Assembly: GCA_009785095.1 (NCBI GenBank)
Contig: WQXA01000001.1
Location: 3,244 to 67,243, forward strand
From: Candidatus Saccharimonadota bacterium
GTDB taxonomy: Bacteria > Patescibacteriota > Saccharimonadia > Saccharimonadales > Saccharimonadaceae
Reading direction: 5' to 3'
Length of the DNA stretch: 64,000 nucleotides
Of this stretch, positions 6,413 to 50,668 are shown piece after piece (the stretch's first letter is position 1; each line of letters begins with the position of its first letter). Both the position numbers and the translations under genes were made by a program. The notes under the pieces are model-generated. The model saw only the letters and a program-made list of their open reading frames with translations, was not told the origin of the DNA and searched no databases.

Positions 6413-7396
6413 ATGATTAGAGAGATCAAGGATCAGACAGAATGGGATAAATTGCTGACCGAACAGGGCGGCCATCCGTTGCAGCTCTGGGCTTGGGGTG
6501 AGCTAAAACAGGCGCACGGATCGTGGACGCCGTATCGTTTAGCGATCGAGCAAAATCATGAATTTATCGGGGGAGCGCAAATTTTGGCGCGAAAACTATC
6601 AAAACCGTTCGGGCGGATGTTTTACATACCGCGCGGGCCGTTCTGTGCCAAAAATAACAGGGGTGAAATTTTACAGGAACTAACTAATTGGGCAAAAAAC
6701 CGTGGCGGTATAGAGCTAAAAATCGAACCCGATTGGGCGGAAGCGGAACAGTGGCCAGCCGGTTGGCGGCGCTCGAAAAACCGTATTTTGGTGTCGCAAA
6801 CCGCGATAATTGATCTTTCTCGTAGCCAGGACGAGATTATGAGCAGGGCGGCCAAAAAAACCCGCCAATATATCCGAGGATCGGCCAGTGCGGGCGTCAC
6901 GGTGCGGCGGGTGACTGCTAAAAAAGACATCGCTAAATGCCTCGAGATTTATCACAGCACGGCCAAGCGAAATAAGTTTGGCTTGCACGAGGACAGTTAC
7001 TACTATGATTTGGCGCGGTTAGCGGGCGATTCTAACCTGATTTATCTAGCGGAAAAAGACGGTCAGCCGCTGTCTTTTCTTTGGAATCTGCGGACGCCGA
7101 GCACTGAGTTTGAGCTGTACGGCGGCGCCAATGAAGCAGGGCAGGGGCTTAGGTCGAACTACTGTCTAAAATGGCACGCTATAACAGAGGCAAAAGCCGC
7201 CCAAGTCGCGATTTACGACCTGAACGGTCTACTAAACGACGGAGTTAGCAATTTCAAGCGCAGTTTCTCCGACGACGCGATCACCTGGGTGGGGACGTGG
7301 GACAAACCGCTGTCGCCGCTCTATTACGCCGTGGAGACCGCTCTACCGGTAGCCAAAAAAACCGTCCAGGTCTTGAATAGACTAAAAAAACGCTGA
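6413..7396 (+). CDS. FemAB-family peptidoglycan interpeptide-bridge aminoacyltransferase (paralog 1)
   Basis: FemAB-like blocks (YIPRGPF, YDLNG, NFKRSFS) and ~330 aa length. Divergent from valS. Confidence 0.75.
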   Translation: MIREIKDQTEWDKLLTEQGGHPLQLWAWGELKQAHGSWTPYRLAIEQNHEFIGGAQILARKLSKPFGRMFYIPRGPFCAKNNRGEILQELTNWAKNRGGIELKIEPDWAEAEQWPAGWRRSKNRILVSQTAIIDLSRSQDEIMSRAAKKTRQYIRGSASAGVTVRRVTAKKDIAKCLEIYHSTAKRNKFGLHEDSYYYDLARLAGDSNLIYLAEKDGQPLSFLWNLRTPSTEFELYGGANEAGQGLRSNYCLKWHAITEAKAAQVAIYDLNGLLNDGVSNFKRSFSDDAITWVGTWDKPLSPLYYAVETALPVAKKTVQVLNRLKKR

Positions 7397-13385: not shown

Positions 13386-13937
13386 ATGAACAATTTAACA
13401 ACCATCGACCAAATCGAGTCGAGCGTGGTGTCGCTGCGCGGGCAGAAAGTGCTAATCGACGCCGACGTGGCGCGGTTTTATGGCGTGGAGACCAAACGCA
13501 TTAATGAAGCGATCAAAAATAATCCGGACAAGTTTCCAGATGGCTATATTTTATCTTTGCATGCAGACGAATGGCAAAACTTGAAGTCGAAATTTTCGAC
13601 TTCAAGTTGGGGCGGCAAAAACAAACTGCCCAAAGCGTTCACCGAAAAAGGCCTATACATGCTGGCCACCATCCTGAAAAGTCCGCGCGCCACCGCGACG
13701 ACGCTGGCGATCGTGGAAACTTTCACGAAAATCCGCGAGCTGACCGGCCTACTCAGCGACCTGCCGGATTCCACGAACGGCGTCGAGCGCCAGGCCCTGA
13801 TCGACCAAAGCAGCCAAATCATGTCGGGGCTACTGGACGAAAACATGCGCGTTTCGGAAACGGAAACTACTGTCGAGGTCAATTTTGCGGTCATGAAAGT
13901 CAAGCACACGGTCAAACGTGGCCGCAAGCAAAAGTAA
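13386..13937 (+). CDS. ORF6N/KilA-N-like DNA-binding domain protein
   Basis: LRGQKVLIDADVARFYGVETKRINEAIKNNPDKFP...FTEKGLYMLATILKS matches the ORF6N domain pattern from memory. Confidence 0.55.
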   Translation: MNNLTTIDQIESSVVSLRGQKVLIDADVARFYGVETKRINEAIKNNPDKFPDGYILSLHADEWQNLKSKFSTSSWGGKNKLPKAFTEKGLYMLATILKSPRATATTLAIVETFTKIRELTGLLSDLPDSTNGVERQALIDQSSQIMSGLLDENMRVSETETTVEVNFAVMKVKHTVKRGRKQK

Positions 13938-16751: not shown

Positions 16752-17567
16752 TCACAGCTGAACTGTGGCGGTCGCTGGTCGGCGCATCGACGGCTGCTTA
16801 TTAGATTGCTGTGTGTTGCGCTCTGCGTCCACAGCAGGGCGTTTTTTATGCCGTCTTGGTTGTTGAACCGGAACTATTCCGTCAGACAATTTTATTCCGG
16901 CTCGTCGTGCCAACCTATCCACCTCTCCAACCCAGTATGGAAGTTCTCTTTTCTCTCTATTACGTTTACCAGGCTTACTATAGTCAACCCGATGACCTTT
17001 AACACTCGCACTCCCCATGACGGTTGTGAGAAATAGAGCACGACCTACGTAATTCTCTCGCAATCTTATTCGACGATCTGCTGGAGATTCTTTACAATCT
17101 TGAGGCATGAACATAACAGCATACTTTTGCCAATATTCTTTCCATGCAATACCCTCTTCAGTGCGTATGGCATCATCACGCTCAAGCCAGGACATCTCCT
17201 GTTCGGCCATTATTCTGGAGCGTTCTGCCCACGCAGCGGCCTCTTCGTACATCGGTTGTTCTATTAATGCTCCAAGATTATCTAAGTCAGCAGAAACTTC
17301 ATCCAGCTGAGATGGTTCAGCTTCAGTATCAGTCTGGGCAGATTGCTCTCTCACGTGCCGGGCTGCCAGCATACCCCACGCTGTCTTATCGCTATGTATA
17401 ATAGACTTCATAGTCTTTGGGTCGATATGGTCATCGGGCATGAGTTCCGGGTCAGCATAACCATCTGGTTCTTCGAAATAGCCAGCTCCAGTAAAAGCTC
17501 CAGGTTTTTGCGGTAAGCTATCTCGCCCTTCATATCGTTCAATAGCACTGCTCAGTCGTTCTGCCAT
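16752..17567 (-). CDS. hypothetical acidic Trp-rich protein (orphan)
   Basis: Long ORF with no recognisable motif. Start placed at ATG 17567 (MAERLSS), because the codons upstream coincide with a consensus promoter. TTG 17660 is the alternative start. Confidence 0.45.
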   Translation of the reverse strand: MAERLSSAIERYEGRDSLPQKPGAFTGAGYFEEPDGYADPELMPDDHIDPKTMKSIIHSDKTAWGMLAARHVREQSAQTDTEAEPSQLDEVSADLDNLGALIEQPMYEEAAAWAERSRIMAEQEMSWLERDDAIRTEEGIAWKEYWQKYAVMFMPQDCKESPADRRIRLRENYVGRALFLTTVMGSASVKGHRVDYSKPGKRNREKRELPYWVGEVDRLARRAGIKLSDGIVPVQQPRRHKKRPAVDAERNTQQSNKQPSMRRPATATVQL

Positions 17568-17614
17568 AACACCTACGATCTTTCTCCCACCGCAGTTAAA
17601 AGTATTTGCGGAAA

Positions 17615-17645
17615 ATTGTAACACAATGGGGGGGGGTGCTGTCAA
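17615..17645 (-). promoter_or_regulatory. sigma70-like promoter TTGACA-19 nt-TACAAT with a C9 tract inside the spacer
   Basis: On the minus strand: TTGACA (17645..17640), a 19-nt spacer containing CCCCCCCCC, then TACAAT (17620..17615). Confidence 0.5.
17628..17636. repeat. homopolymer tract G9 (C9 on the gene strand)
   Basis: Counted directly. Confidence 0.95.
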
Positions 17646-17682
17646 GGGCTTTTTCAACAAAAATTCAATGGAAATATAGAAA

Positions 17683-23351: not shown

Positions 23352-24299
23352 ATGAAGAATTTTATTGAATCAATAGGAAATGTCACTAGAAAACCAGTGG
23401 CTGTTGCTACCGTAGCAGCTGCAGCTTTCGGACTAGTTGGTGGATGTACTGTTTCTGGGTCAAACCGGGGGGGGGATGTTTCGCCTCAGGTTGCTGCGTC
23501 TCAGGATGATATGCCTGAGGATATTATGGGAGCAAAAACGTTTGCAGCACCACAAGGAGAAAGACCTAAAGACATAGAGCCCGCAGAGCCCACACTTGGA
23601 GCTTCGAATACTCCAGAAGCGACAAATAAAAGAGAAGGAATTACTCCTAGCCCCTCTAAACAACAGCCAACTGGAACTCCTAATGAAGAAGCTCCGACCA
23701 GTGCCCCAGCCACTATAGAAGCAAAAGATGAGGCAGAACCACCAGCTGTTGAAAGCCCTAAACCCACTGAGCAAATCGAAGCTCTTGACGACGTGGGCAT
23801 TATAGAAACCATAGCTGAAGAACTTAAACTATATTTGGGGGCGGGCAGCTATCTGACTGATAATAAGCTCGACCTAAGAGATCGCAGCTTGAGAAATAAA
23901 TTAAAAAAAGAGTTATCAGCACTAGAGCAGAGATTTGGTAGCGAGCTGGCGGAAGAAGTTTTAAAAAGCGCGCTTGCCCGAGCGCTCACTGGTATAGAAG
24001 ATCCATCACCGGCGGCTAAAAATAGAGACTACGCCATGCGTTTCATAAAAGGTCGCATTGGAAATCTTACTAATAGGACGCTAAATGGTGATGAGAGCGC
24101 TGAAAGGGAACTGGTTAAAATTGAAGCTGAGGTTCAGGAAAAATTACAGGCGGCCATCGATGATGGTAACAAGGGCGGTAATCCCGGCAGTTCGACAGAA
24201 AATGTTAGTTACAGAAGAACAAAATTAAGCGGAGAAACGAGAGCTTTACTGCGGTTTCTCTACGGCGATGACGCAAGAGTGGACATAGTGGAAGTATGA
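23352..24299 (+). CDS. putative lipoprotein (orphan), G9 tract 6 codons after the lipobox Cys
   Basis: Signal peptide ending LVGGC, Pro/Glu/Thr-rich linker, helical C-terminal part. The tract is read as RGG. Confidence 0.6.
   Translation: MKNFIESIGNVTRKPVAVATVAAAAFGLVGGCTVSGSNRGGDVSPQVAASQDDMPEDIMGAKTFAAPQGERPKDIEPAEPTLGASNTPEATNKREGITPSPSKQQPTGTPNEEAPTSAPATIEAKDEAEPPAVESPKPTEQIEALDDVGIIETIAEELKLYLGAGSYLTDNKLDLRDRSLRNKLKKELSALEQRFGSELAEEVLKSALARALTGIEDPSPAAKNRDYAMRFIKGRIGNLTNRTLNGDESAERELVKIEAEVQEKLQAAIDDGNKGGNPGSSTENVSYRRTKLSGETRALLRFLYGDDARVDIVEV
23467..23475. repeat. homopolymer tract G9
   Basis: Counted directly. Confidence 0.95.
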
Positions 24300-24333
24300 T
24301 AGTGGAGTGTCTTAAAACATTCCATTAACCACA

Positions 24334-24363
24334 AAATCCCGCGCTCCGGCGCGGGATTTTTCT
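24334..24363. terminator. bidirectional rho-independent terminator
   Basis: AAAATCCCGCGC-tccg-GCGCGGGATTTTT: a 10-bp GC-rich stem with an A-run on one side and a T-run on the other. Confidence 0.8.
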
Positions 24364-24389
24364 TAGTGGTACTGCTTCAATGCGACAAT
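24363..24389 (-). pseudogene. displaced native 3' end of the FtsX permease gene (IVALKQYH*)
   Basis: Encodes exactly the last 8 codons plus the stop of 24796..26016, with 5 differences from 24796..24822 that are all synonymous. It uses G/C-ending codons and abuts the terminator. Confidence 0.8.
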
Positions 24390-24439
24390 CTAGCTACATT
24401 TGACTGACCGGATTGCTTTATCTGCGGCTCGCAATGACG

Positions 24440-24742
24440 CTAAGCGGCATCGGGTCGGTCTTCATCAAGCCCCTCGCACAAGGGATTTGTCCCTGTCGAG
24501 CCTAAATCAATACCTACCTTTGGTAACATTCTGCTAACCGGCACACCTCTTCGGGCAGCGCGCTTATAGACTCTCGCTAGTCTATTAATAATTGCTTGGT
24601 GCTGCTGTTCTGGAGATGGCGCATTTAACAACCGTACAACTAGCTTACCCATTCTGTCTATTATTCGAGCCACGATGCCAGGACGCCCTTCTTGTATCAG
24701 GTTAGGTTGACGGGGGGGGGGTATATCAAGACTCTCACTCAT
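24440..24742 (-). CDS. hypothetical basic 100-aa protein (orphan), C10 tract at codons 8-10
   Basis: ATG 24742 lies 10 nt downstream of the -10 box. The tract is read as PPP. The upstream part of ORF 24440..24766 overlaps the promoter. Confidence 0.5.
   Translation of the reverse strand: MSESLDIPPPRQPNLIQEGRPGIVARIIDRMGKLVVRLLNAPSPEQQHQAIINRLARVYKRAARRGVPVSRMLPKVGIDLGSTGTNPLCEGLDEDRPDAA
24712..24721. repeat. homopolymer tract G10 (C10 on the gene strand)
   Basis: Counted directly. Confidence 0.95.
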
Positions 24743-24752
24743 ATTATATCTC

Positions 24753-24781
24753 ATTGTACAATTCAAATTCGTTTAGGTCAA
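24753..24781 (-). promoter_or_regulatory. promoter TTGACC-17-TACAAT (leaderless-type)
   Basis: Minus strand: TTGACC 24781..24776 and TACAAT 24758..24753. Confidence 0.55.
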
Positions 24782-24795
24782 GTGGCGTACTTGAC

Positions 24796-26016
24796 TTAGT
24801 GATATTGTTTTAGTGCGACAATTGGATCTTGGCGGGCGGCGCGGGCGGCTGGCCAGAGGCCAAACAAGAGACCGACAACGAGCGGTACGCCGAGACCGAT
24901 GGCGAAAATCCACCAACTAGATACTAGTGGCAAGGAAAATTGCAGGGCGATCACATAGCCGGCCGCGTAAGCTAATAGTAGTCCAACCAAGCCACCACCT
25001 AGCGTCATGAGGAGAGCTTCTAGCAAAAACTGCTCGAGAATCTGGCGTTTGGTGGCGCCGACGGCTTTTCGGATGCCGATTTCGCGCACTCGTTCGGTCA
25101 CGCTGACTAACATGATATTCATGATGCCGATGCCGCCGACCAAGAGCGATATGCTAGCAAAAATCAGAGCCACCAACGTGATCGTCGCCAACCAACCGGC
25201 GGTGGCGCCAGCCGCTTCGTGGGCGGTGTGCACAGCGAATTCGCTGTCGTCAAAGTGATCCCGCTGCAGCGTGGCGACGACGCTCTTTCTGGTTTCTTCC
25301 AATTGTTTTTTGTCGACCGCGCGGACAATTATTTGCCCAATTTGCGCTTTGTTGTCGGTGAATCGGACGCCGTCGGCCAGAGAAATAAAGGCCGCCTTGT
25401 CGACGTCAACCCCGGCCAGCGAAATCGGTTGATTAGCGGTTTTGACCACGCCGACCACCATGAATTCTTTGCCCTTGATGTTGATTTTCTGACCCATGGC
25501 TTGATTAGTTTCAATCAAGCCCGAAGCCAATTTTTCACCGAGAATCACGTAGTTACGAGCAGTTTCTTTATCAGAAAACCAATCGCCCGAAATCATTTTG
25601 AGCCCCAAAACATCCGGCAGTTGATCGTTAGTAGCAACAGTAGTGATATTGTCATAGAAACGCTGGCCGCTCTCGACGCGGCTGCCCAGGAACATCATGG
25701 GAGCGACATCTCGAACGCCGGAAAGTTTGCTAATCGCTGTGACATCGCGCTCGGCCAGAGTTGTGGCGTTAGCCACCCGGAGAGGCGAAAAGGCTTCCAT
25801 ACCCGTGGTGCTATCGCCGGCCGAACGAATCAGTAGAACGTCGTCGTTCAATCGAGCGGTTTGGTTGATAATGCTGGCACGTAGTCCGCCGCTAAGAATC
25901 AGAATCAGGGAAATAATAAAGACACCAATCACCACGCCGAGGGTCGTGAGCAGAGTCCGCGTGCGATGAGCGCGCAGGCTTCCCAGAGCGAGGCTAAAGC
26001 TAACCGGCAAAACCAT
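24796..26016 (-). CDS. ABC transporter permease, MacB/FtsX family
   Basis: N-terminal TM helix, large periplasmic-type domain, C-terminal FtsX-like 3-TM bundle (ERVREIGIRKAVGA). Confidence 0.85.
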   Translation of the reverse strand: MVLPVSFSLALGSLRAHRTRTLLTTLGVVIGVFIISLILILSGGLRASIINQTARLNDDVLLIRSAGDSTTGMEAFSPLRVANATTLAERDVTAISKLSGVRDVAPMMFLGSRVESGQRFYDNITTVATNDQLPDVLGLKMISGDWFSDKETARNYVILGEKLASGLIETNQAMGQKINIKGKEFMVVGVVKTANQPISLAGVDVDKAAFISLADGVRFTDNKAQIGQIIVRAVDKKQLEETRKSVVATLQRDHFDDSEFAVHTAHEAAGATAGWLATITLVALIFASISLLVGGIGIMNIMLVSVTERVREIGIRKAVGATKRQILEQFLLEALLMTLGGGLVGLLLAYAAGYVIALQFSLPLVSSWWIFAIGLGVPLVVGLLFGLWPAARAARQDPIVALKQYH

Positions 26017-26870
26017 TATTTCTTCCCCCTGACGAAACGCCGCGTACCCCGACGTTTGCGGGCGGCTTTACGGCGCGAGATGAATTTGTTGGCGATTGAG
26101 TGCGCTCGATTCTCAGTTAGCTCGATGTCCTTTACGATGCGACCGTCTTTCATGTGAATCACCCGAGAGGCGTAACTAAGCAGATCAGGATTGTGTGTGA
26201 CCATCAAAATAGTGTTGCCTTCGCGGTGAATGCGCGTTAATTCGTCCATGATGATCTCGCTATTTTTGCTATCGAGATTGCCGGTCGGCTCGTCGGCCAA
26301 AATGATCGACGGATTATTGACGAGAGCCCGCGCGATGGCGACGCGCTGGGTTTGGCCACCGGACAATTGATAGGGCATATAATATTCGCGATTTTGCAGA
26401 CCGAAATTTTTTAAAAGCTGACTGGCTTTTTGTTGGTGGCGGAAATTTAAGCCTCGTTGGTAAGTCAGCGGCAGAGTCACGTTGTTCAAAATGTTTAACT
26501 TTTCTATCAAATTAAAGTTTTGAAAGACAAAACCAATCTCGCGATTTCGAATGCGGGCTTTTCGGGTGCTCCTGATGCGGGCGACGTTGCGGCCATTCAA
26601 GATATATTCGCCGTCGGTCGATTGATCGAGCAATCCCAACATATTGAGCAGGGTCGTTTTACCGCAGCCGCTCGGCCCCATGATGGCCACGAATTCGCCG
26701 CGCTCGATCGTCAAATCCACACCGTCCAGAGCCGCCATCGCCGTGTCGCCGTAACCGAAAACTTTACGCAAATTATGCAGGCCAATCACCGGAGCGGTGC
26801 TGCTAACGGGACTCGCGAAAAAAATAGAACCAGTACTATGAGGTGTGGTGGCCATCTTATCAAGTATCAT
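26016..26870 (-). CDS. ABC transporter ATP-binding protein (MacB/LolD-like)
   Basis: [35 protein letters not shown]. Basic C-terminal tail. An internal start at 26855 is possible. Confidence 0.9.
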
Positions 26871-27863: not shown

Positions 27864-30800
27864 ATGGTAGCAATTTCGCGTGCAATGAAAGAGTCGACAG
27901 ACAAGGGTTTTTCTGATAGCGGCAAAAACCGTCGCCGTCTAATGCTCATTACGCGCACCCTTGCCGCTCTTGGCGGTGGTTTCGTTATTATTTTCGGCCT
28001 GCTCTATCTTTTTCACTCAAAAGACACCACCCTGACTATGCCGGCATCCTTGCTAGATCGCCAAACTCTCGATGTCAAGCTCAACGTCTATTCTGCCGAC
28101 GGGGCTACCGATTTACTTTATTCACAAGATCTCACTGCGAGTGTGGTAAATGATGGAAGCCAAATAAAAGTAAATTGGCGAATACCAGCGGAATATACCA
28201 AGCGCGACACTCATGTCGAAGTGGTTAGCCGAGAACTTTTAGCAAAAGAGGAATCATATGACTCTTCCTGTGCATATTTCGTTCCTACGCGTTCCAGCGG
28301 CTTCATTTCTGATCTCGCCGGCTGGAACAGTTTGGACGAAAACCAACGCATTGGCTGTCTTGCGCCTAACGATCAATACACTAGTTTTCTCCAGGCCTAC
28401 AACGACATCAGCAAAACCCTTTACTCGGGTCTTTATTTTGACGGCGGCCAAGTCATCAACGCGCCAAACACTTCTGGCGACATTAATTTAACTGACATTA
28501 ATAATCTCATTAACCAAGCCATCAATGAGAAAGCCCTTGTTTTTGCTGGCCCCCAAGGCAGCCCTGGGCTGCGCGGCTCTCAAGGAACGCCAGGATCGCA
28601 AGGTGAGAAAGGTGAAAAGGGCAGTCCCGGTGACACTACCGTCGTCATAGATCCCGGCCTAGTTGGGGAGAAAGGCGCCAAAGGAGATACGGGCACCAAA
28701 GGTGACAAGGGCGACAAAGGCGATCCCGGCAGCGACGGCGTCATGGGTGTTACCGGCGGCGGGCTTATTCTCTATAATCATATACTTTCCCTCAAGTCAT
28801 GCCTGGATGGTGAGGTTCTTAAATATCAGGATGGCGTGTGGGATTGTGCTCCGGACATGGTAGGCACCAGCGGTATTAGTCTGACTTGTACCGAAGGAGA
28901 CATACTCAAATCTGTCGGTGGCGTGTGGTCTTGTGCTGCCGAGGGCACCGGTACGAGCACGGACACTACTTACCTTGCCGGCAATGGTTTAATCCTGGAC
29001 TCCGATACCAACACGTTTTCTATCAACGCCCTGGCCTGCCAGACCGATGAATATCTGACCTGGAACGGCACTCAGTTTTCTTGCGAGGCGGACGACGATA
29101 CCAATATTGACACCGACACCACATATGGCGCTAAACAATACGGTGGCCTCGTCCTGGACAGCAATAATGATTTTGCTCTCATGCTCTGCTCTGACGCTCA
29201 GGTGCTAAAATACTCCAGCGCCGCTTATAGCGGTCAAGGTGGGTGGATTTGCGCCGAAGACGCCGACACGACTTATGATCTGTCTGGCTATCTGCAAATC
29301 GCCAATCTCCAGGACGCCATCGATGCTCTCACGCCAGGCTATTACAACAAGGATCAAATTGACAGTATGTTCGATGATTTCACCAGCACGCTGCCTCTGA
29401 GTGGGCTAAAAGTTCCTCAGGTGGTAGCCCTGGAGTCGGAGCTCTCAGACGCCTCCTGCACCGAGGCCGGTGATTATTGGTTTGTGCAGGACATGGACGT
29501 TACAAAGCCAGACCACACTGGTCGCGCTTGGTGCTATGAAGACGGTGGTGGCACGCTTCACCTCTACAAAGTTTACGATGATTATTCCCACCCCGATAAC
29601 GTCAGTATTCTCTTTAATTCTGACGGCCAGCTCACAGTTTCCGAGAGTTGGTTAGATAGCTATCTTTCAAGTAAAGATTACGCTACGGAAGACTACGTAG
29701 ACAATGCTATAGCAGGTCTAGATTTTACGCCTTACGTCACTTGGACTGACGTGCCGCAGTGCTCGGCCGGATCATTCCTGACTAGCACGGCCAGCGGCGT
29801 GCTGTCTTGCGCCGCCGCCAGCACCACCGACACCACCTATACGGCCGGTGAAGGTATCACCATTGACCCAACCAGGGGTAATGCCATCAGCATCAACGCC
29901 CCGACTTGTACGGTTGGGCAATACCTCACCTGGAACGGCGCGTCGTTTTTGTGTCAGGACGATGCCGACACTGTTTTCTCTCTGCCTGATGGTACTGATG
30001 ATGGCGACATACTCATTTGGGATACTGCCACTAATTCTTGGGTGATCGGACAGCAAACCGGATCAGGTATTGATACGACCTACGCCGCCAAGGCTGGTGG
30101 TGGATTAAAACTAGAGGGCTCTGCTTCGCCCTATGAATTCTCGCTGATTGATTGTTCGGCTGGGCAGCTGCTGAAGTTCGTCTATAATCCTTCTACATTG
30201 GAAAACGAATGGCAATGCGCTGTGGATTTGCAAGGTGCCGACCAGGATCCTTATTTGGCCGGTACGGGCATCGTAATAGATTCTAGTAACTTCATCGGTA
30301 TCGACGCTACCGAGTGTCAAACTGGCGAATTCCTGACATGGACAGCCTCCGGCTTTGCCTGTCTGGATGCCAGCTCGAGCTTCACCGACAATGACGAGCA
30401 AGTTCTGACTTTTGACAACACCAACTGCAAACTCAGCATTAGCAACGGTAATACAATTTATTTGAATTGTGGCACGGAGTCGTGCCCGCCGGTCGGGGCG
30501 CTGCGCATCAACACTAATTTCTTTGATCCGATTGTCACCGATGTTAGTGGCGCCGTTTGGTACCGCATGGATGGTCAGACTATTTCGCCCAGCGACCAAG
30601 CTACTTATGCAGCTGGTTTTGCCGGTATTATCAATCCCGATGGCACCTTGCCGGTTCAGCAAAACTCTGACAGCCTTTACTTCTACCTCAAGGTTTTTGG
30701 CAATTGTGCGCCGATGGTCAATACCGACACGGTTTACGAGGAGGGCAAAGGTATCAGCTTTACCGACCTGGACGGCAATGGCATTCCGGAAATTAATCTA

Positions 30801-33800
30801 TTATATATAAGTGACAATGGCGATTTTATTTTCCAAAAAGGCATGCAAAATGGCAGCGAGACCGAATCATTGAGCGCCTTTGAAGTTCGCGACATGACGG
30901 CGAATAGTATTTTCCGTGTTGATACTTTGAATGGCCAAGTGCAGATGAAAGCCATCGAAGACGCCTACGGTAGCACTGGCGCCTACGGCCAAACTCTGCA
31001 GATAGATGTTTACGGCAACCTTAAATGGGACAGCAATATTTGTCGGGATGATATTAACGCACCGTTCACCAACATTCCTTCTCAGGCTGTCGCCATCTTA
31101 TCCACCAATGACCGCTTCTTGTTCACAGTAGCAACCACCGCCAGCGGTGACGTATCCACGCCGGACAATGTCACGACTTACCTTGCTGGACAGACCATTC
31201 CGGCCAACACCGAAGTGGTGGTCTTGACCGACAATACCGAAGTCTATCTGACCGGTGACATCGTGACCGACGGATCCTGGATTAGCCAAGTCAAATTCTG
31301 TGGTGACCCCAATACCAAAGAATTACCAGTCGGCACTCACGCTCGCCAAGCTCTAACTTGGGACGGATCCGAATGGGTGGCTGGCGAATACATCACCGTT
31401 AACGGCCAGGACGCGGAGGCTTTCAAAGTCAGCGCCGACATGAACGACGCCGACAAAACGGTCTTTAACGTCGATTCGGTCAACGGCGTTGTGACGGTCG
31501 GCACAGCCGCCAACCCGGCTGACTTGATTGTTAACGGCGATACTATATTAAACGGTGACACTTACTTCAACGCTCCACTCCATCTGGACGCGGATGCTTT
31601 GGTTTATGATTACACCGGCAGTTCTGGCGATGCCGGCGATTACCTGAGGATAGACGAGAACGGCCGCCCAGTTTGGCAACCCATTCACGGTGATTTCGGT
31701 GACATCGGCGATTACCATGCTGATACAGACGGGATAGCACATGGGCAAGTGATGGTGTTTGATGCAATCGAAGACAAGTTTGTGCCAATGTACCTAGGTA
31801 TAAACCCAGACCCGGATGATGTCTGTAATACTCAACAAAATTTCAGCATTGCCGATCCTGGTACTACCGTAGATATTTTGGTGAACAGGAATACTATACA
31901 GAACCGACCGTCAGTAGAAATATTAAAGAAAGTAGATAGTACGACCACCAGTACCAAAGTACGGCAGTTTAATACGGCCAATATCACTAACTTTACTAAC
32001 AGCGACAGCAATAAATACTTAGATTGGAATGCTAGCCGAGTGCAACCACAAACTACCTATAACTATACGCCAGCTGATCTAAACAAGGTAATAAGTACTA
32101 CCTCGATTGGCGATATAAAGCTTTATGAAACTACTATTGATACGGATCTAAAGACATTCGAGCAACTAACGACCGGCTACGACACTAGCAATGCTAATGT
32201 TGACCAATCCGGCTCTCTCTTAGGGCAGATCAAGAGCCAATTTGCTGGTATTTCGTCTGGTGCTGGTGGTGGCTATAACGTTGTTACTCAAAATAATACG
32301 AGCCTACCAATAGAAATCCTACACTTTTATGGTAATTATACTTATTCTACGACCGGGCAAGCTCTAGTTGCTGGTGACAATGGTTTTGTTGAAACCTCTG
32401 CCACCGACGGAGCGATGCTAGTTTTATGGTTCCATAATAACCTAACAGTCAATTCTGGTGCTACCCTAACACCAAAAGTCCGTCGCAAAGGTATGACCAT
32501 AATAGTTGATGGCAAACTGACCAATAATGGTACAATCTCTATGACTGCTAGAGGGGCTAGTGCAACTGGGCAAGATGTACAACTATTCAAGAATTCTGAC
32601 AGTACATTTGAGTTGGTGCCGGCGGTAGGGGCGACAGGCGGAGCAACTGCATATACGGGGTGTAGAGGGTGGGCTCGAGGTAATAACGGAAGTTCCATAG
32701 TGATTAACGCTCGCGGTACTGGTGGCGGAGGCGGTGGTGCTATTGGTCCATGGGATACCTGCGGTTCATCATCTGGCGGAGCTGGCGGAGCTGGCACATC
32801 GTATTCTGGCGGTGCTGGTGGTGGTACGACTATTACGGATCGTATCAACCTCGCTGGCGGCGTGGGCTCCTCGACCGGTGGAGCTGGTGGCGCTTCTGTG
32901 GCTGGACGCGGGAATGCCTCTTCGGGAACAAAGCTCGTTGGTGGCGGTGCTGGCAACCCAGCCGGAGCCAACGCCGCGCAAGGAGCTGCCGCATCGGGCT
33001 GGATTGCTGGTGACGGTACGGGTGGGCTACTTAACGTCTACACTGAACAGTTGGTTAACACCGGCTCCATCGTCTCAGGAGGGGTGATTGGTACTAGGCC
33101 GATAGGCTCGGCTAGCGAAGTTGGTGTTGGTGGATCGAGCGGAGGCGGTAGCGTCAATATATTTGCTGCTAGCTCTACCAACGGAGTAATAAACGCAGGA
33201 GGGGGAATAACGGCTGGATTCAATTCGGGAATGGGTGGTGGCGATGGTGGCGCAGGTAACGCCACAATAACGCCTACCGCAGTCACCTATTACCTCTTTA
33301 CAATCAACGGAGCAACATATTATTATAATGCTGGCATGGGCTTCGTGCCATTTCCGGGCAACCCGAGCAAGAATTCCCTGACTTTAAGCGACTTCTTAAC
33401 CTACGGAGATATTAGTGAGGACATTAATTACATTGCTCCCAACGACCTGGCTAATCTACTCCAAAACGGCACAATTTTAACCGCCACTAACGCTGGCGCA
33501 CAAGACTTTACAGTCAGAGGCGCTCCGCAACCCCAACTAATTGTTGATCGCGCACCAGTCAACCTCGGCATGATCGATACGCTAATATCTACTACTTTAG
33601 GCGGCATAATTTCTGGCAATGGCGTGGCCACGGTGGTGGTTTCTGCCAATAATGGCATGACTTGGTATACGACTCACGATTTGGGTGCTACTTGGGTACA
33701 AGTCAGTCCTCTGGATGTAACTACGGTATTAAACGAGGGTATACCAAAGGATGAATTCGATCAATTAGCTCAAACTCTCTTGTCGGTACCAGGATTCGAA

Positions 33801-34844
33801 GATACCGATCGTCTACGCTTTGCTTACGTTTTAGATATGCAGACTATATCGGATTCTGCTCAGATTCAATACCTAGAACTAAATTACCAATCTTGGTTCT
33901 CGTGGATCAAGTCCGAAAACGACATAGACAATGACATGAATGGCGACTATACATATACTTATACCTCGCCGACCACTTTACGGGTAACATTCCATAAAAC
34001 TGGTGATTTCAAGGTTAACGTTATCGGTGAGCTGTGCAACCCGTTAACTCTGGCTCAAATTCCCGAGGGCGAAAAAACCGGCCAGACCATCATGTGGGAT
34101 AACGATACGCAGAGTTGGGTGCTGGGTGTCGGTTCTATCGCCAACTATGATGCCGGCAAAGGCATCGCCATCGACAGTAATGGTAATATCAACCTGTTGT
34201 ACATAGACGATAACGGCAACTTTGTTTTCAAAAATCTCGGTGGTGACACCGCTAATGTCTTCCAGGTGATTAATGCTGCTAACGCTCCGCTCTTTACCGT
34301 TGATGCCGTTACGGGTAATGTGATAGTTGGCTCTGGCGACACTTCGGATTCTACTGCCGTGGCTCTCGTACTAGATTCTTCTACAGTTGCTCCGTCAAAC
34401 CCCAAGAACGGCATGCTCTATTACGACACTACGCTAAATAAATTCCGCTGTTACGAGAACGGCGCCTGGGTTGACTGTATCCAAGAAGCGCCGTTTAGCA
34501 CTCGCTACAACAATTGGATCGCCGGTATGGAATACGACTTTGGCGACGGCCTTTATGGTCAGCGCCTCACGGGCAATATCACTGCAACTTCTGGTCTGCT
34601 TTCGGATATTACACTTGGTATATCTAACGTAGCCAGCATCGTAGATTACGGCGGCAGCATCGGCTTGGGCACGGGGTCAACCAAGCGCGGAATCATTCCA
34701 TTCGGCACATCAGACGGCAACGTTTCGCTTGAATTCGATTCTTCCGATAAAAGTATCCACTTGCTTACTATGGTCAACAATGCCCGCGATGGCACAACTA
34801 ATTCTGATTACAACATATGGCTTAAATACACCAAGACGCCGTAG
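27864..34844 (+). CDS. giant (2326 aa) membrane-anchored surface protein with collagen-like, Cys-pair repeat, Gly-rich and tail-fibre-like segments
   Basis: N-terminal TM helix. Two G-X-Y runs (28549..28632 and 28665..28740). About nine modules of C-x3-[EQ]-x-L-x-[WYF]...[WF]-x-C, often preceded by DTTY. GGxGGxG-rich block around aa 1590-1790. C-terminal NGMLYYDTTLNKFRCYENGAWVDC. Putative promoter TTGCTT-17-TATACT at 27824..27852. Confidence 0.8.
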   Translation: MVAISRAMKESTDKGFSDSGKNRRRLMLITRTLAALGGGFVIIFGLLYLFHSKDTTLTMPASLLDRQTLDVKLNVYSADGATDLLYSQDLTASVVNDGSQIKVNWRIPAEYTKRDTHVEVVSRELLAKEESYDSSCAYFVPTRSSGFISDLAGWNSLDENQRIGCLAPNDQYTSFLQAYNDISKTLYSGLYFDGGQVINAPNTSGDINLTDINNLINQAINEKALVFAGPQGSPGLRGSQGTPGSQGEKGEKGSPGDTTVVIDPGLVGEKGAKGDTGTKGDKGDKGDPGSDGVMGVTGGGLILYNHILSLKSCLDGEVLKYQDGVWDCAPDMVGTSGISLTCTEGDILKSVGGVWSCAAEGTGTSTDTTYLAGNGLILDSDTNTFSINALACQTDEYLTWNGTQFSCEADDDTNIDTDTTYGAKQYGGLVLDSNNDFALMLCSDAQVLKYSSAAYSGQGGWICAEDADTTYDLSGYLQIANLQDAIDALTPGYYNKDQIDSMFDDFTSTLPLSGLKVPQVVALESELSDASCTEAGDYWFVQDMDVTKPDHTGRAWCYEDGGGTLHLYKVYDDYSHPDNVSILFNSDGQLTVSESWLDSYLSSKDYATEDYVDNAIAGLDFTPYVTWTDVPQCSAGSFLTSTASGVLSCAAASTTDTTYTAGEGITIDPTRGNAISINAPTCTVGQYLTWNGASFLCQDDADTVFSLPDGTDDGDILIWDTATNSWVIGQQTGSGIDTTYAAKAGGGLKLEGSASPYEFSLIDCSAGQLLKFVYNPSTLENEWQCAVDLQGADQDPYLAGTGIVIDSSNFIGIDATECQTGEFLTWTASGFACLDASSSFTDNDEQVLTFDNTNCKLSISNGNTIYLNCGTESCPPVGALRINTNFFDPIVTDVSGAVWYRMDGQTISPSDQATYAAGFAGIINPDGTLPVQQNSDSLYFYLKVFGNCAPMVNTDTVYEEGKGISFTDLDGNGIPEINLLYISDNGDFIFQKGMQNGSETESLSAFEVRDMTANSIFRVDTLNGQVQMKAIEDAYGSTGAYGQTLQIDVYGNLKWDSNICRDDINAPFTNIPSQAVAILSTNDRFLFTVATTASGDVSTPDNVTTYLAGQTIPANTEVVVLTDNTEVYLTGDIVTDGSWISQVKFCGDPNTKELPVGTHARQALTWDGSEWVAGEYITVNGQDAEAFKVSADMNDADKTVFNVDSVNGVVTVGTAANPADLIVNGDTILNGDTYFNAPLHLDADALVYDYTGSSGDAGDYLRIDENGRPVWQPIHGDFGDIGDYHADTDGIAHGQVMVFDAIEDKFVPMYLGINPDPDDVCNTQQNFSIADPGTTVDILVNRNTIQNRPSVEILKKVDSTTTSTKVRQFNTANITNFTNSDSNKYLDWNASRVQPQTTYNYTPADLNKVISTTSIGDIKLYETTIDTDLKTFEQLTTGYDTSNANVDQSGSLLGQIKSQFAGISSGAGGGYNVVTQNNTSLPIEILHFYGNYTYSTTGQALVAGDNGFVETSATDGAMLVLWFHNNLTVNSGATLTPKVRRKGMTIIVDGKLTNNGTISMTARGASATGQDVQLFKNSDSTFELVPAVGATGGATAYTGCRGWARGNNGSSIVINARGTGGGGGGAIGPWDTCGSSSGGAGGAGTSYSGGAGGGTTITDRINLAGGVGSSTGGAGGASVAGRGNASSGTKLVGGGAGNPAGANAAQGAAASGWIAGDGTGGLLNVYTEQLVNTGSIVSGGVIGTRPIGSASEVGVGGSSGGGSVNIFAASSTNGVINAGGGITAGFNSGMGGGDGGAGNATITPTAVTYYLFTINGATYYYNAGMGFVPFPGNPSKNSLTLSDFLTYGDISEDINYIAPNDLANLLQNGTILTATNAGAQDFTVRGAPQPQLIVDRAPVNLGMIDTLISTTLGGIISGNGVATVVVSANNGMTWYTTHDLGATWVQVSPLDVTTVLNEGIPKDEFDQLAQTLLSVPGFEDTDRLRFAYVLDMQTISDSAQIQYLELNYQSWFSWIKSENDIDNDMNGDYTYTYTSPTTLRVTFHKTGDFKVNVIGELCNPLTLAQIPEGEKTGQTIMWDNDTQSWVLGVGSIANYDAGKGIAIDSNGNINLLYIDDNGNFVFKNLGGDTANVFQVINAANAPLFTVDAVTGNVIVGSGDTSDSTAVALVLDSSTVAPSNPKNGMLYYDTTLNKFRCYENGAWVDCIQEAPFSTRYNNWIAGMEYDFGDGLYGQRLTGNITATSGLLSDITLGISNVASIVDYGGSIGLGTGSTKRGIIPFGTSDGNVSLEFDSSDKSIHLLTMVNNARDGTTNSDYNIWLKYTKTP

Positions 34845-35336: not shown

Positions 35337-38300
35337 TTATCGACGACGAGCCGTAAGCTTATCGTGATACTCTCGCGCATACCTAATCAGTTGCGGCGGA
35401 AGACCCACTTTCTCGGCAAAAGAAAGGGGATTTGATATTACTTTTTCACCATCAACAATAGTCCGCTCAATCTGATCGCCAGATTCGGTGAGGACAATAC
35501 CTTGCACGCCCAAATCTGAGGCTTCTTCTGCGAAATCCAAAAAACCGTCATGATGGGTTGTCACCACTAAACGATGGCCGCGCGCGGCATTAGCCGCTAA
35601 TGTTGCGGCTGCGAAAGCGGCCTGGTACTTCGGAGATGTTGAACTGCCAATTTCGTCGGCAAAAGTGATGGCTGTTCTTGCTCCGGAAATTATTCGATGG
35701 TGGTCAGCCCAAACATCAACCTCGTGTTGACCGGCACTAGCCTCAACGTCCATTTCTTGGGCGATCCTACTGATGTATGAAATCCGCTCAAAATAAGGTA
35801 GGTTTCCATAGCTGGCCGGTACGACCCCCATTTTCATAGCGAGTAAAATGGCGTTGGTGATGTGCCTCGTGCCATAGGTTTTGCCTGCTGAGTGCTCGCC
35901 GCTGAGGGTAACGCCAGCCTGATCGCTCCGGATGCTATAATCAAAAGGCTGGTGCCTACTGCCGTGCCCGATGTCTTTCACTGAGTCGAGCCGTACTTCG
36001 CCGGTATCATTGAATTTGGCCAGCGCGTACTCGCCGGACGAGACACGTTTAGCCAAATCACCAAGGTATAGCAATCTATCGATAGCCTCGGCTATCTCTC
36101 TCGGTTCTTCTTGCCAAAAAGGATTTTCCGGACGTTGTTTTTTAGTCAACGGTGAATAATCAGAATGCCAGGCATCTGTGCTATTCGAATCGTCGACCGT
36201 TTCACTAGGAGTCGCCGTGCGATTATTGACGAGGTTTTGTAAATGCAAGATACCTTGACGCATATGAACGGAGTCTATCTGATCGCGATGCTGTTCTAGG
36301 CGTTCGAGCGCATCCATTATAGTAGGCTCCGACTGCATGAGTTCAATCAATTTTCCAATACCCGAACCCATTTTAATCGATGTAGAGATCAGTTCCGAGT
36401 TCGGGTTCTCCTGCCGCTCGCTTTCTCCAGTAACGTAGGCATGTTGATTACTGTCAAAAGTTGTTTCTGGTTGTGCTAGAACTTCAAGGATCGGCTTTAG
36501 GTCATCTCTAAGCCAAAACTTTTCAAGGCTACTGCCTTTAAAATCAATTTTACGTATTGCTGTCGAAGCTAATCTCGCTGCCTGTCTCAATCTCTCCTGG
36601 ATCTTATCTGTGTGCTGTTTGTTGATACCCTTAAGAAAGTAATATTGGCGACGGTTCTGACTGTTGTCGTAAAGTTGCAATTCTTGCTCATGAGCTGATC
36701 GCAATTTGTCAATTTGAGAGCTGAGAAATGATAGGGAATCACGTAATTTAGTAAAGTCTCCGAAACCAAGTAGCTCCAACAGCTCTACATAGGCTAAGGC
36801 CTTCGCTGCGAGACTAATATCACGCACTATTGGATAGTATGATGCATCTCCATCGAGATTAAAATGACCATTTTTCGAAAGCGAGGGTGTTACCTCGTCC
36901 GTTATTTTATGACCAAAACCATGCTGAAAGTTAAACGCCCAGATAGGATTAAGCTGTTGTAGCAGAACCGATGGATCTTTATTTCCAACTATCTTCAAGA
37001 AAGTCTCAAGGTTGACACCGAGCAAATTGAGATCATCAACCAAATCATCCAGTTCTCCATAACCGGCCAGCACCTCGATCGTCCGCCGCCGTTCGATTAA
37101 TTCCCTAAACTCAACTGGGTCGCTATTACACAGCAACTGTCGCTGCTCCGAACTCATGCCACTCAGTAGATCAGAATCCTTGCTCAATGGTACATAGGCG
37201 GGGCTGTGTGGTGTCTCGGGGAACATATATGCTAGACCACCGTCGCGCTCCATCATCTCTTCGCGTTTCGTTTGGTCGTAACCACTTTCCGGAACAGCCG
37301 GATAGTCCGGCGTGTAGCTAATTTTGAGGCTGCCATCCAAATAGTCTTCCATTAGACCAGCATAGTCTTCACCGAGTCCTCTTGAGCGCACTACATCTAT
37401 AAAACCAGAATCAGCCACGCCTTCTACCATCTGATATGGGTTGTCAGGGTCGTTTGTAAAGCTATAAAGTCCTGCGTCTTTCAATTTTTTTAGCATGCTC
37501 GCAACATGCTCGTTATGGGTTGCTAAACACACTAATCCGCCGTTTTCCTGCACATAGCGAGCGAACGCCAAATTCAAGGCTGCTTGCCAAAGCGGCGACG
37601 TCGTGGACATCGCTTCATCGAGATAAAAAACAGGTTTCTTGCCTATGTGACGGAGCGCTTCTTTCCATCTACGAAACTCATTAACGAGTGCGCCATGGTT
37701 ACCTATGCCGCGAGAATTGCACCGGCCAAGCATAGTGAAGGACGTATGCAACTCAAATTCGTTTGGTTGTTCGGCCGGAACCCAACCAAGTGCTTGTCGT
37801 GCTATCCGCGCACCGAAATCACGCTCCATGGCGAATGTTTTACCCGATCCATTTGCAGCAACTAGGACAACTATTGAGTGCTCATTAAACAATCCTTTGC
37901 CAAGGGTTTGCTCACCTTTGGGCTTCTGAAATTTCCAAGCGCCGGAGATCTCCGAATCAGTATCGCCCGGGATTGCTGGATGCCATTCGTCCTCAGCTAT
38001 CATTGAGGCTAACGTTGTGACTACTACCAAATCTACCATTCGAGCGAGAACATTATCTGCCCAATTACTAGGATTGTGGTTAAAATGTCCGAAAGTATCT
38101 CCACCAGAGTAGTATCGATTATCAGGGCGACCATATCCAGGAAGCCACGATAGAAATCTATCGTAAGGGTAAGAACCAAATTGACATCTTGCTTGCTCGT
38201 CACTCATCCAGGTTCGAACTTGATCAACTGAATCTCGATTTAACAAATTTCTTATACAGTATTCTAGATACTTCATACTTACAGCACTTGGCTCAAAAGT

Positions 38301-38843
38301 TTCATCAATAGTGGTAAGCAGACTAGCTATTCGTCCCAGACTTCCAACGTTTGTTGCGATGTCATCAAGAACAATATTCATGGCCTCGTTCGTTCGGTGA
38401 TGCTCATACCCTAGGTTTGGTACATAAATTTCTGACTCTGTCTCTAAACCCATCACATACATTTCATATAATGAGCTGTTATTCCAATTAGAATCATCCC
38501 CTGAAGGCCAAAATGCAGAACCTAAAGCATCCGCCAGTGCCATTGCTCCCACTAGAGCCTTTCTTAACTCTGGTAGCTGTTCTGATTCGGCGAGCATGCG
38601 AAGTATCTCCCTACGCTGCTCGAGCACAGTTGTATCAGAAATCGGTCTTGATATAATGTCATCTGCTATGTAAGATAATCGACTCTCCGTAAATATAGAT
38701 ACGTTACCTTCCTCCTCGGATGGTTCAAACGGTCGATAATCAGATTCATGTTGACCAGTGTAAAATCTAGCTGGCAGGGCTTCAAGTTGATTCGGGGGGG
38801 GGGGCGGCGGTAGCAATAGCAATGTTCGTGATATTGGTCGCAT
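35337..38843 (-). CDS. MutS-family protein with two tandem core-plus-ATPase (domain III/V-like) modules; C11 tract at codons 12-15
   Basis: Module 1: AANGSGKT (~37836..37859), VFYLDEAMSTTSP, LATH. Module 2: GEHSAGKT (~35880..35903), FADEIGSSTSP, VTTHH. Each is preceded by a helical segment with a MutS-core-like ...I..RR.I..L motif. I saw no mismatch-binding domain I and no Smr domain. Confidence 0.6.
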   Translation of the reverse strand: MRPISRTLLLLPPPPPPNQLEALPARFYTGQHESDYRPFEPSEEEGNVSIFTESRLSYIADDIISRPISDTTVLEQRREILRMLAESEQLPELRKALVGAMALADALGSAFWPSGDDSNWNNSSLYEMYVMGLETESEIYVPNLGYEHHRTNEAMNIVLDDIATNVGSLGRIASLLTTIDETFEPSAVSMKYLEYCIRNLLNRDSVDQVRTWMSDEQARCQFGSYPYDRFLSWLPGYGRPDNRYYSGGDTFGHFNHNPSNWADNVLARMVDLVVVTTLASMIAEDEWHPAIPGDTDSEISGAWKFQKPKGEQTLGKGLFNEHSIVVLVAANGSGKTFAMERDFGARIARQALGWVPAEQPNEFELHTSFTMLGRCNSRGIGNHGALVNEFRRWKEALRHIGKKPVFYLDEAMSTTSPLWQAALNLAFARYVQENGGLVCLATHNEHVASMLKKLKDAGLYSFTNDPDNPYQMVEGVADSGFIDVVRSRGLGEDYAGLMEDYLDGSLKISYTPDYPAVPESGYDQTKREEMMERDGGLAYMFPETPHSPAYVPLSKDSDLLSGMSSEQRQLLCNSDPVEFRELIERRRTIEVLAGYGELDDLVDDLNLLGVNLETFLKIVGNKDPSVLLQQLNPIWAFNFQHGFGHKITDEVTPSLSKNGHFNLDGDASYYPIVRDISLAAKALAYVELLELLGFGDFTKLRDSLSFLSSQIDKLRSAHEQELQLYDNSQNRRQYYFLKGINKQHTDKIQERLRQAARLASTAIRKIDFKGSSLEKFWLRDDLKPILEVLAQPETTFDSNQHAYVTGESERQENPNSELISTSIKMGSGIGKLIELMQSEPTIMDALERLEQHRDQIDSVHMRQGILHLQNLVNNRTATPSETVDDSNSTDAWHSDYSPLTKKQRPENPFWQEEPREIAEAIDRLLYLGDLAKRVSSGEYALAKFNDTGEVRLDSVKDIGHGSRHQPFDYSIRSDQAGVTLSGEHSAGKTYGTRHITNAILLAMKMGVVPASYGNLPYFERISYISRIAQEMDVEASAGQHEVDVWADHHRIISGARTAITFADEIGSSTSPKYQAAFAAATLAANAARGHRLVVTTHHDGFLDFAEEASDLGVQGIVLTESGDQIERTIVDGEKVISNPLSFAEKVGLPPQLIRYAREYHDKLTARRR
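38794..38804. repeat. homopolymer tract G11 (C11 on the gene strand)
   Basis: Counted directly. Read as PPPP within LLLPPPPPPPNQ. Confidence 0.95.
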
Positions 38844-50624: not shown

Positions 50625-50668
50625 CTTCATGACTTTCTTTTCCCCTCAAACTCCTGTAAAATAGAACC

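Follow-up and report, generated by a model that had tools for sequence, protein, structure and literature searches.

How can more than 400 bp of DNA enter the coding sequence of a transporter gene and leave the encoded protein unchanged? This question is raised by the window analysed here, a 64,000-nt stretch of contig WQXA01000001.1 of Candidatus Saccharimonadota, in which the gene for a MacB/FtsX-type ABC transporter permease is accompanied by a second, untranslated copy of its own last eight codons and stop (Table 1). Between the two copies lies a 100-aa orphan gene. We favour, with a probability of about 0.4, the explanation that DNA of a related lineage was taken up by natural transformation and joined to the chromosome by homology in the gene end on one side and illegitimately, 27 nt before the resident stop, on the other. 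The permease has the same sequence as NCBI MCL2451288.1, an entry of a Candidatus Saccharibacteria metagenome-assembled genome (MAG).

Comparison of the two copies revealed a close but imperfect repeat. Both ATTGTCGCACTAAAACAATATCACTAA (24796..24822) and ATTGTCGCATTGAAGCAGTACCACTAA (24363..24389), on the minus strand, translate as IVALKQYH*. They match in 22 of 27 nt, and all five differences are both transitions and synonymous. The differing codons are CTA AAA CAA TAT in the active, gene-attached copy and TTG AAG CAG TAC in the displaced one; identical blocks of 9 nt and 7 nt flank this differing centre. Identity reaches one base beyond the stop, which makes the repeat a 28-mer with a start-to-start spacing of 433 nt, and similarity drops off abruptly at both edges. 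The boundaries of the insert read CCA/ATTGTC and GCTAG/ATTGTC (slash at the boundary). Matches of such quality are expected by chance 1.5e-4 times in the whole window, where no other position reaches 20/27. No other open reading frame (ORF) with 80 codons or more has such an echo of its C-terminus in the window, where this is also the only imperfect direct repeat that brackets a gene. Since the reading frame of the displaced copy is shut by a TAG immediately upstream, with which the 50-nt tail of the insert ends, the echo is not translated. A translated echo was rejected on this ground, and the frames of the parallel echoes in loci L006 and L181, described below, are not conserved.

Relatives of the permease (74-84% identity) are all 406 aa long and keep the C-terminus DPIVALKQYH. 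Nine contigs with such relatives were fetched, representing eight distinct loci, and no second copy of the gene end was found in any of them. At three of these loci (L163, L164 and L170; permeases 80-84% identical) the stop is directly followed by a terminator homologous to that of the window (AAAAACCCGCGCC.G.GCGCGGGAA.TTGT), after which come a convergent gene and then DAGK. This empty-site context is the context of the displaced copy, which indicates that the displaced copy and the terminator represent the ancestral junction and that about 433 bp were inserted; with relatives at only 80-84% identity, this polarity is based on parsimony and on the echo itself. The empty-site sequence, composed in silico, is …CAAGATCCA + ATTGTCGCATTGAAGCAGTACCACTAAGAAAAATCCC. 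The stretch between the permease gene and DAGK is hypervariable, with at least four arrangements in ten relatives, including non-homologous convergent genes of 166-315 aa, a DAGK starting 12-18 nt after the stop, and one different same-strand gene.

Both copies and the whole insert were found to be base-identical in three assemblies, namely the 78-kb contig held by JGI, ENA and NCBI and the Logan assemblies of SRR5215205 and SRR10512954. The copies have no 31-mer in common, and with longest common runs of 9 nt and 7 nt there is no k-mer ambiguity able to link them in assembly. These data agree with most of what had been predicted from the sequence alone. The original prediction described a duplicated IVALKQYH* with five synonymous differences in 27 nt, an insertion into the last nine codons of the permease gene, its repair by a synonymous copy of its own end, and a cassette that carries a 100-aa orphan gene with a C10 tract and no recombinase. 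Each of these was borne out: the three assemblies agree on the duplication, the insertion measures about 433 bp with empty sites in L163, L164 and L170, and recombinase genes are missing from the 64-kb window as a whole. The described contrast between A/T-ending codons in the active copy and G/C-ending codons in the displaced one holds for the four codons that differ.

The two Logan contigs (L081 and L082, from different runs) both begin at base 24941, inside the permease gene and about 120 nt upstream of its stop, and their opposite ends lie 13 nt apart. The common contig end suggests that the assembly graph branches there, reflecting either a mixture of strains or a recombination boundary. 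The permease and the ATPase have no entries from the Logan assemblies.

The origin of the two copies can be approached from their synonymous sites. Four synonymous states (Val GTC, Ala GCA, His CAC and stop TAA) are common to both copies and occur in none of eight relatives, which makes the copies sisters within this lineage. Free drift of an untranslated copy would hit all codon positions; the synonymous-only differences imply that the two versions diverged inside working genes. On this sequence evidence, the insert brought one of the two gene-end versions with it. In codon usage only four codons are informative, and they point to the gene-attached copy as the incoming one (likelihood ratio about 22); the adjacency of the displaced copy to the ancestral terminator agrees with this. 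The gene-attached copy is thus probably the newcomer and the displaced copy the native end, as predicted. An attempt to choose the native copy from the 27 nt alone was abandoned, the relatives being too diverged at third positions.

A six-frame reading of the 433-bp insert identified one intact gene, the orphan ORF, and no pseudogene debris. The spliced segment comprises, in order, the alternative last eight codons and stop, a small hairpin, a promoter and the orphan gene; the old codons, stop and terminator now lie downstream. Because the hairpin is weak and has no U-tract, permease transcripts probably read through it into the orphan gene. The promoter had been described as consensus and leaderless. 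It is near-consensus (10/12 matches) and not a full consensus; leaderless transcription is plausible from the position of the ATG, about 10 nt past the -10 box. In its TACAAT -10 box and very short leader it is of the type usual in the clade, as seen in the relatives L166, L171 and L172. The ORF is longer than expected by chance, one of at least 100 aa having arisen in 1.1% of shuffles. The structure model of the orphan product is a helical hairpin of low confidence (pLDDT 63), and no signal peptide or transmembrane segment was evident by eye. The orphan ORF was not called by NCBI, where the flanking entries MCL2451287, -88 and -89 are numbered consecutively, and it was called by JGI, ENA and Logan.

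Database searches with the orphan protein gave no match in Pfam, PHROGs, NCBIfam, PADLOC, PDB sequences, PDB folds, phage and plasmid collections or IMG/VR, and in 5.8 billion clustered proteins it found only itself. The 406 nt of insert between the copies have no similarity elsewhere in the window or to any of 181 fetched loci. An exhaustive HMMER search of 1.8 billion representatives returned a 29-residue motif match (13/29) to DUF5907/glycine-rich repeat proteins, which was discounted as inflated by repetition. The only weak database matches of the orphan are repeat proteins of the same general kind as the product of the gene at 27864-34844, a 2326-aa protein with many internal repeats and no Pfam match at 1e-5.

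The composition of the orphan gene sets it apart from its target and not from the rest of the window. Its G+C content at third codon positions (GC3) is 0.41, that of the permease gene 0.60, and its codon score lies in the lowest 2% of 100-codon chunks. G/C homopolymers of 9-11 nt occur ten times in the window and those of 7-8 nt not at all, with about 0.1 of at least 10 nt expected. Seven of the ten lie towards the 5' end of genes that are open and low in GC3 (0.32-0.44), among them the orphan and its convergent neighbour; all of the tract-bearing low-GC3 genes except one with a MutS domain are without a family match, and no 5' module shared among the tract-bearing genes was found. With its low GC3 and 5' G/C tract the orphan resembles at least six other genes of the window and so looks, by sequence, like a normal member of the lineage's phase-variable accessory genes, one of this genome's own. 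An exotic composition of the cargo is therefore not upheld, since these features are typical of a whole gene class in the window.

The C10 tract of the orphan resembles contingency loci of Neisseria, Haemophilus, Campylobacter and Helicobacter in being a 10-nt homopolymer near the 5' end at which a change of one nucleotide truncates the product, and in having nine companions of 9-11 nt in the window, one of them in a promoter spacer. It is unlike them in showing no length variation among three assemblies: C10 was constant in 3/3 (window and both Logan assemblies), consensus assemblies being a weak test of tract polymorphism. The density of 9-11-nt G/C tracts in promoter and 5' coding regions suggests contingency-locus phase variation in Saccharibacteria. 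In the literature searched we found no paper combining "phase variation", "homopolymeric" and "Saccharibacteria".

Further gene-end echoes were sought, as a control, in 1.6 Mb of sequence from 170 fetched loci with 6755 ORFs, each locus being centred on an FtsX gene. The scan yielded tandem permease paralogues, exact repeats like repetitive extragenic palindromic (REP) sequences, and one real parallel, L006; among the 6755 ORFs no comparable echo was present at any other gene. L006 is a contig of the candidate phyla radiation (CPR) from a co-assembly, and its MacB-type permease is 33% identical to that of the window. After a spacer of 54 nt, the final 55 nt of its gene occur a second time (7158-7321), with four consecutive third-position synonymous changes close to the end and one non-synonymous change. 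The closest relative of L006, L180 (87% identical), has an empty site (2783). L181, an independent NCBI MAG 82% identical to L006, carries a tandem repeat of about 110 nt (4185-4405) that consists of the last 55 nt of the gene plus 55 nt downstream. All six coding differences between its two units are synonymous, the first 36 nt are identical, and the non-coding halves match at 39/56 positions. Judged by sequence, L181 resembles a tandem of two alleles of one segment that have diverged: homology of the non-coding halves fits alleles set side by side and not an element with an attachment site. The spacers of L006 and L181 are homologous (43/55), and the repeated units contain no gene and are unrelated to the insert of the window (best local scores 13-19). 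Over the three repeat pairs (window, L006 and L181) 15 of 16 differences are synonymous. A near-palindrome straddles the novel joint in each case, AATGTAGCTAGATT in the window and CGGGGCAGGCCCCG in L006 and L181. The original prediction had named related genomes with both copies and no orphan gene as evidence against it; the geneless echoes of L006 and L181 come close to this arrangement, but in a different clade.

Taken together, these observations could be explained by natural transformation as follows. The incoming DNA would come from a related Saccharibacteria lineage in which an accessory gene follows the permease gene. After uptake, one end would have paired with the conserved 3' region of the resident permease gene and been integrated by homology, and the other would have been joined illegitimately, by homology-facilitated illegitimate recombination (HFIR) or by a replicative template switch. 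An illegitimate joint that landed upstream of the resident stop would duplicate the gene end, and both copies, descending from working permease genes, would then differ at synonymous sites only. The permease protein would be unchanged; the orphan would be expressed from its own promoter, probably also by read-through from the transporter operon, with transcripts ending at the old permease terminator; and slippage at C10 would turn the 100-aa product on or off.

Support for the transformation model comes, by sequence comparison, from the polarity of the insertion, the synonymous-only echo, the structure of L181, the native-like cargo and the lack of enzymes or other copies. The homology in the window stops one base past the stop codon, the point where related lineages cease to be alignable, which recombination would account for. 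The anatomy left by transformation, with one junction within homology, an illegitimate joint at the other and no element-encoded functions, is compatible with the window. Saccharibacteria are naturally competent via ComEC and integrate linear DNA by homology, and the machinery of competence and recombination, known from cultured members, is conserved across CPR (PMC10633639). Transformation can also make tandem duplications by alternative pairing (PMC3784515). The merodiploids of that study are 100-900 kb long and bounded by insertion sequence (IS) repeats, unlike a 27-nt duplication. HFIR, with one homologous anchor and one illegitimate end, resembles the arrangement proposed here, and neither HFIR nor transformation requires an element enzyme. 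Homology-facilitated exchange after natural transformation was one of the two mechanisms originally proposed; it gains weight from L181 and L006 and is now the better supported.

Several points weigh against the transformation model. The expected donor arrangement (permease, hairpin and orphan with no echo) was not found, and this absence is uninformative, because matches to the conserved GIGIMNIM motif dominated the genome and metagenome scans made with the permease, which yielded relatives of up to 40% identity only. Textbook HFIR usually replaces or deletes recipient DNA beside the anchor. A duplication of 27-55 nt of the anchor at a gene end is, to our knowledge, not a described outcome of HFIR or transformation, and a joint upstream of the homology anchor is an extension of HFIR that we infer and did not find documented. 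The model presumes that the organism of this MAG is transformable, as cultured Saccharibacteria are. In the four central codons each of the five synonymous-transition sites differs between the copies, and in the flanks all six such sites are unchanged, a clustering (6/462 = 0.013) that uniform divergence would not predict; this saturated centre between identical flanks is not fully explained by any model considered. Finally, the 36-nt left blocks are identical within L006 and within L181, and the two genomes differ mutually at six positions there. Left blocks that are identical within divergent genomes call for a crossover placed precisely where the block ends, for gene conversion at a later time, or for a site-specific mechanism.

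A site-specific mechanism would be supplied by an integrative element whose attachment (att) site mimics the last nine permease codons. Such an element could be what deletion has left of a larger phage or island, or a mini-element mobilised in trans by the product of a recombinase gene located elsewhere. This explanation is the main rival, a serious one though somewhat less probable than transformation. It assumes a crossover in the 9-nt identical core ATTGTCGCA, by which the element-borne end would have become part of the gene (attL) and the native end would have come to lie at the far side (attR); the expected junction of the 433-bp circle is …GTAGCTAG joined to ATTGTCGCACTAAAAC…. An empty site in related genomes, direct repeats with an identical core and a protein-preserving replacement end are all present, as for integrative elements, and the assemblies show the filled site only. 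Homology extends from the short identical core to just past the stop, the active copy has the codon usage of the insert, and near-palindromes lie across the joints at all three loci. The identical left blocks of the three repeat pairs, which in L006 and L181 end at the same boundary, could mark a fixed crossover point, and an element would be the best account of these blocks and boundaries, but every other hallmark is missing. No integrase, excisionase-like match or transposase was detected in the insert or in 64 kb, the insert is only 433 bp with a single intact gene and no debris, and the cargo is unique among about 15 billion proteins with no second copy in the window. No IMG/VR contig has the cargo or the peptide-plus-stop motif, and proviruses adjacent to FtsX genes do not sit at the 3' end. 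Nor does an attachment site predict that the second spacer of L181 is homologous to the first. The "integrative element" signature seen in the original prediction is thus classical, as in e14/icd (see below), and is not the sole reading of a locus without integrase, second copy or cargo homologue; that interpretation is partly supported.

Recurrence in L006 and L181 raises another idea, that CPR bacteria have a class of tiny recombinase-less cassettes or duplication units which home to the C-terminal motif of FtsX/MacB permeases and repair the gene with a synonymously recoded end, by competence-linked recombination or a chromosomal recombinase, here shuffling phase-variable accessory genes. 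We think this quite unlikely. Slightly less credible still is a dedicated, undescribed class of recombinase-less CPR mini-cassettes that home to P-I-x-A-L-[KR]-x-x of these permeases via host machinery, each with a recoded end. Two CPR permease clades as distant as 33% identity do show the echo at the homologous motif and with a common fine pattern, an identical left block followed by synonymous changes in the last 4-6 codons, and nothing comparable was seen at other genes of the control loci; but these loci were all FtsX-centred, which biases the apparent specificity by design. Moreover, the inserted sequences are unrelated, the echoes are of unequal length (27 vs 55 nt), the L006 and L181 units are geneless, L181 is a plain tandem repeat, and the pattern is known from three genomes only. 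A local target-site or tandem duplication, at first perfect and later drifted, with foreign or filler DNA caught between the copies, would account for a 9-nt identical block, a typical length for target-site duplications, and L181 is an example of a permease end duplicated in tandem. It is nevertheless very improbable, since an unconstrained echo should change at all codon positions and not almost exclusively at synonymous ones, or at every available site of the centre and none of the flanks; the window, furthermore, has no second copy of the 406-nt insert, and the insert has no terminal inverted repeats. Least credible of all is an assembly artefact fusing two strain variants of the permease 3' end, which the original prediction had named as a possible refutation. 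The shared end of the Logan contigs at 24941 hints at strain heterogeneity nearby and L006 is from a co-assembly, but three assemblies built from different data are identical across copies and insert, the copies share runs of just 9 and 7 nt, the sequence of the insert is unique and contains a promoter and an ORF that are coherent, and L181, an independent MAG, has the same kind of echo.

Other classes of mobile sequence were searched for directly. No recombinase, transposase or reverse transcriptase gene was found in the insert or in the 64-kb window, and within the insert there was no integrase or remnant of one and no match to excisionase-like families. IMG/VR contained no relative of the cargo and no contig with the IVALKQYH* coding pattern, and those of its provirus contigs that start with an FtsX gene show no integration at the 3' end of that gene. 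A Xer/dif site, which would be 28 bp long with an 11-6-11 layout and partly palindromic arms, was rejected: arm complementarity is 3-4/11 against 2.75 in random sequence and the differences lie in the 12-nt centre, in a test that is weak, since E. coli dif scores only 6/11. An element exploiting Xer/dif was also rejected, as there is no change in the sign of the GC skew at 24.4 kb and the site is inside a chromosomal coding sequence. An integron cassette does not fit, with no RYYYAAC and GTTRRRY cores of an attC site at the boundaries, a 10-bp hairpin at the stop as the only inverted repeat, and a promoter of its own, which such cassettes usually lack. A transposon or miniature inverted-repeat transposable element (MITE) does not fit, there being no inverted repeats that link the insert ends and no transposase, and the flanking repeat is imperfect (5/27) though its first 9 nt are identical. 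For the variable and template repeats (VR/TR) of a diversity-generating retroelement (DGR) the differences are of the wrong kind (G/A, C/T and T/C, all synonymous, where a DGR changes template adenines and diversifies amino acids), and the window has no reverse transcriptase. A homing endonuclease was dismissed because the orphan has no nuclease family match or, by inspection, obvious nuclease motif, and clean homing would not keep the echo.

The closest known counterpart is prophage e14 in the icd gene of E. coli, where the element brings a near-synonymous 3' end and displaces the native one (PMC6379469; PMC13626634). As in e14 (and phage 21)/icd, the gene end in the window is replaced from the inserted side, the displaced native fragment lies at the far side, and the copies are direct repeats. 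Prophage e14, however, is about 15 kb long, has its own integrase and SOS-induced excision, and duplicates a 163-bp segment with two conservative amino-acid changes; the insert of the window has 433 bp, one orphan gene, no recombinase, a 27-nt repeat and no evidence of excision. The replacement 3' end with a displaced original is thus a classical signature. The novelty of the present case lies in its tiny size and lack of enzymes, in its occurrence in a CPR bacterium, in the repeated finding of such echoes at permease ends and in the association with putative phase-variable genes.

Integrase-less segments flanked by att sites are also known as cis-mobilizable elements (CIMEs), for instance ICESt1/CIME of Streptococcus thermophilus, which move by means of an integrase acting in trans. 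The short recombinase-less segment between att-like direct repeats resembles them in this respect; CIMEs, however, are kilobases long and derive from and co-occur with a cognate element, and no such element, integrase or second copy was seen in the window. In polymorphic toxin loci (cdiA-CT and rhs-CT) a new 3' end recombines at a conserved motif and the old end persists downstream untranslated. There the new and old ends are different toxin domains with immunity genes, whereas the two ends in the window encode identical eight residues and the cargo lies outside the target gene.

If transformation is the correct explanation, the locus represents a clean natural footprint of accessory-gene gain in a competent, genome-reduced epibiont: a conserved gene end would serve as the homology handle, the essential gene would stay intact, and CPR bacteria could gain genes without mobile-element machinery. 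If instead an integrative element was involved, it would be among the smallest gene-carrying integrative units to supply a replacement gene end. In either case an untranslated echo of the last codons with synonymous-only differences provides a search criterion for CPR genomes. Phase variation at the G/C tracts, testable with existing read data, would bear on how Saccharibacteria epibionts vary their host-interaction proteins.

Table 1. Features at and around the permease gene end (window positions)
Feature	Position	Strand	Details
MacB/FtsX-type ABC transporter permease gene, 406 aa, target of the insertion	24796..26016	-	Pfam MacB_PCD 3.7e-28, FtsX 1.5e-24
ABC transporter ATPase gene, operon partner upstream of the permease gene	26016..26870	-	Pfam ABC_tran 2.2e-34; synteny kept in all relatives
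Active, gene-attached copy ATTGTCGCACTAAAACAATATCACTAA, last 8 codons and stop	24796..24822	-	Differing codons A/T-ending like the insert; probably incoming
Hairpin, arms of ~10 bp, overlapping the active stop; 3' arm contains the -35 box	24773..24799	-	-8 kcal/mol, z = -1.4, no U-tract
Promoter-like site TTGACC-17-TACAAT of the orphan gene	24753..24781	-	10/12 matches, near-consensus
Orphan ORF, 100 aa (P0001), ATG at 24742	24440..24742	-	Basic, pI 10.0 (helical core pI 12)
C10 homopolymer at codons 8-11 of the orphan	24712..24721	-	Any +/-1 change gives a product of 12-15 aa
Insert tail, 50 nt, from orphan stop to displaced copy	24390..24439	-	No terminator of its own; ends in TAG
Displaced copy ATTGTCGCATTGAAGCAGTACCACTAA, untranslated, last 8 codons and stop	24363..24389	-	Ancestral gene end; adjoins terminator as in L163, L164 and L170
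Bidirectional intrinsic terminator	24333..24360	.	Perfect 12-bp stem (arms 24333-24344 and 24349-24360), A-/T-runs, -29.2 kcal/mol, z = -4.5
Convergent lineage-specific gene, 315 aa, lipobox LVGGC, G9 tract at codons 39-41	23352..24299	+	GC3 0.33; within the hypervariable stretch between permease gene and DAGK
G/C tracts	17628, 19830, 20574, 21121, 23467, 24712, 38794, 43631, 49760, 57015		9/10 are G on the + strand; homopolymer scan

The stem of the terminator ends 2 nt from the displaced stop codon, and the terminator is common to the permease operon, the convergent gene and now also the orphan gene; the Rfam search gave only sub-threshold matches, to this terminator. The convergent gene has no family match and no homology to the convergent genes of the relatives. 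These genes (in L163, L164, L165 and L170) are also mutually without detectable homology, apart from L163 and L170 at 38%, and the terminator between permease and convergent gene is kept despite this turnover. The only domain associated with phages or mobile elements that was found in the window is that of an ORF6N-domain protein at 13386-13937 (2.4e-29), 10 kb from the insertion and with no other element genes near.

Three of the G/C tracts outside the insert are described individually here. Upstream of the gene at 16752-17660, a -35 box (TTGACA) and a -10 box (TACAAT) are separated by 19 nt that include a C9 tract (17620-17660, minus strand; likely ATG near 17567), which is the predicted layout of a promoter-spacer phase switch. 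At 49760 (within 49651-50625) the assembled G11 leaves a 229-aa ORF from TTG 49935, and G12 would open a 324-aa ORF from ATG 49651, which appears to be held in the off state by the tract. The third is a C11 tract 39 nt past the start codon of the gene at 35337-38843 (minus strand), which encodes a 1168-aa protein with a C-terminal MutS domain V and may be phase-variable.

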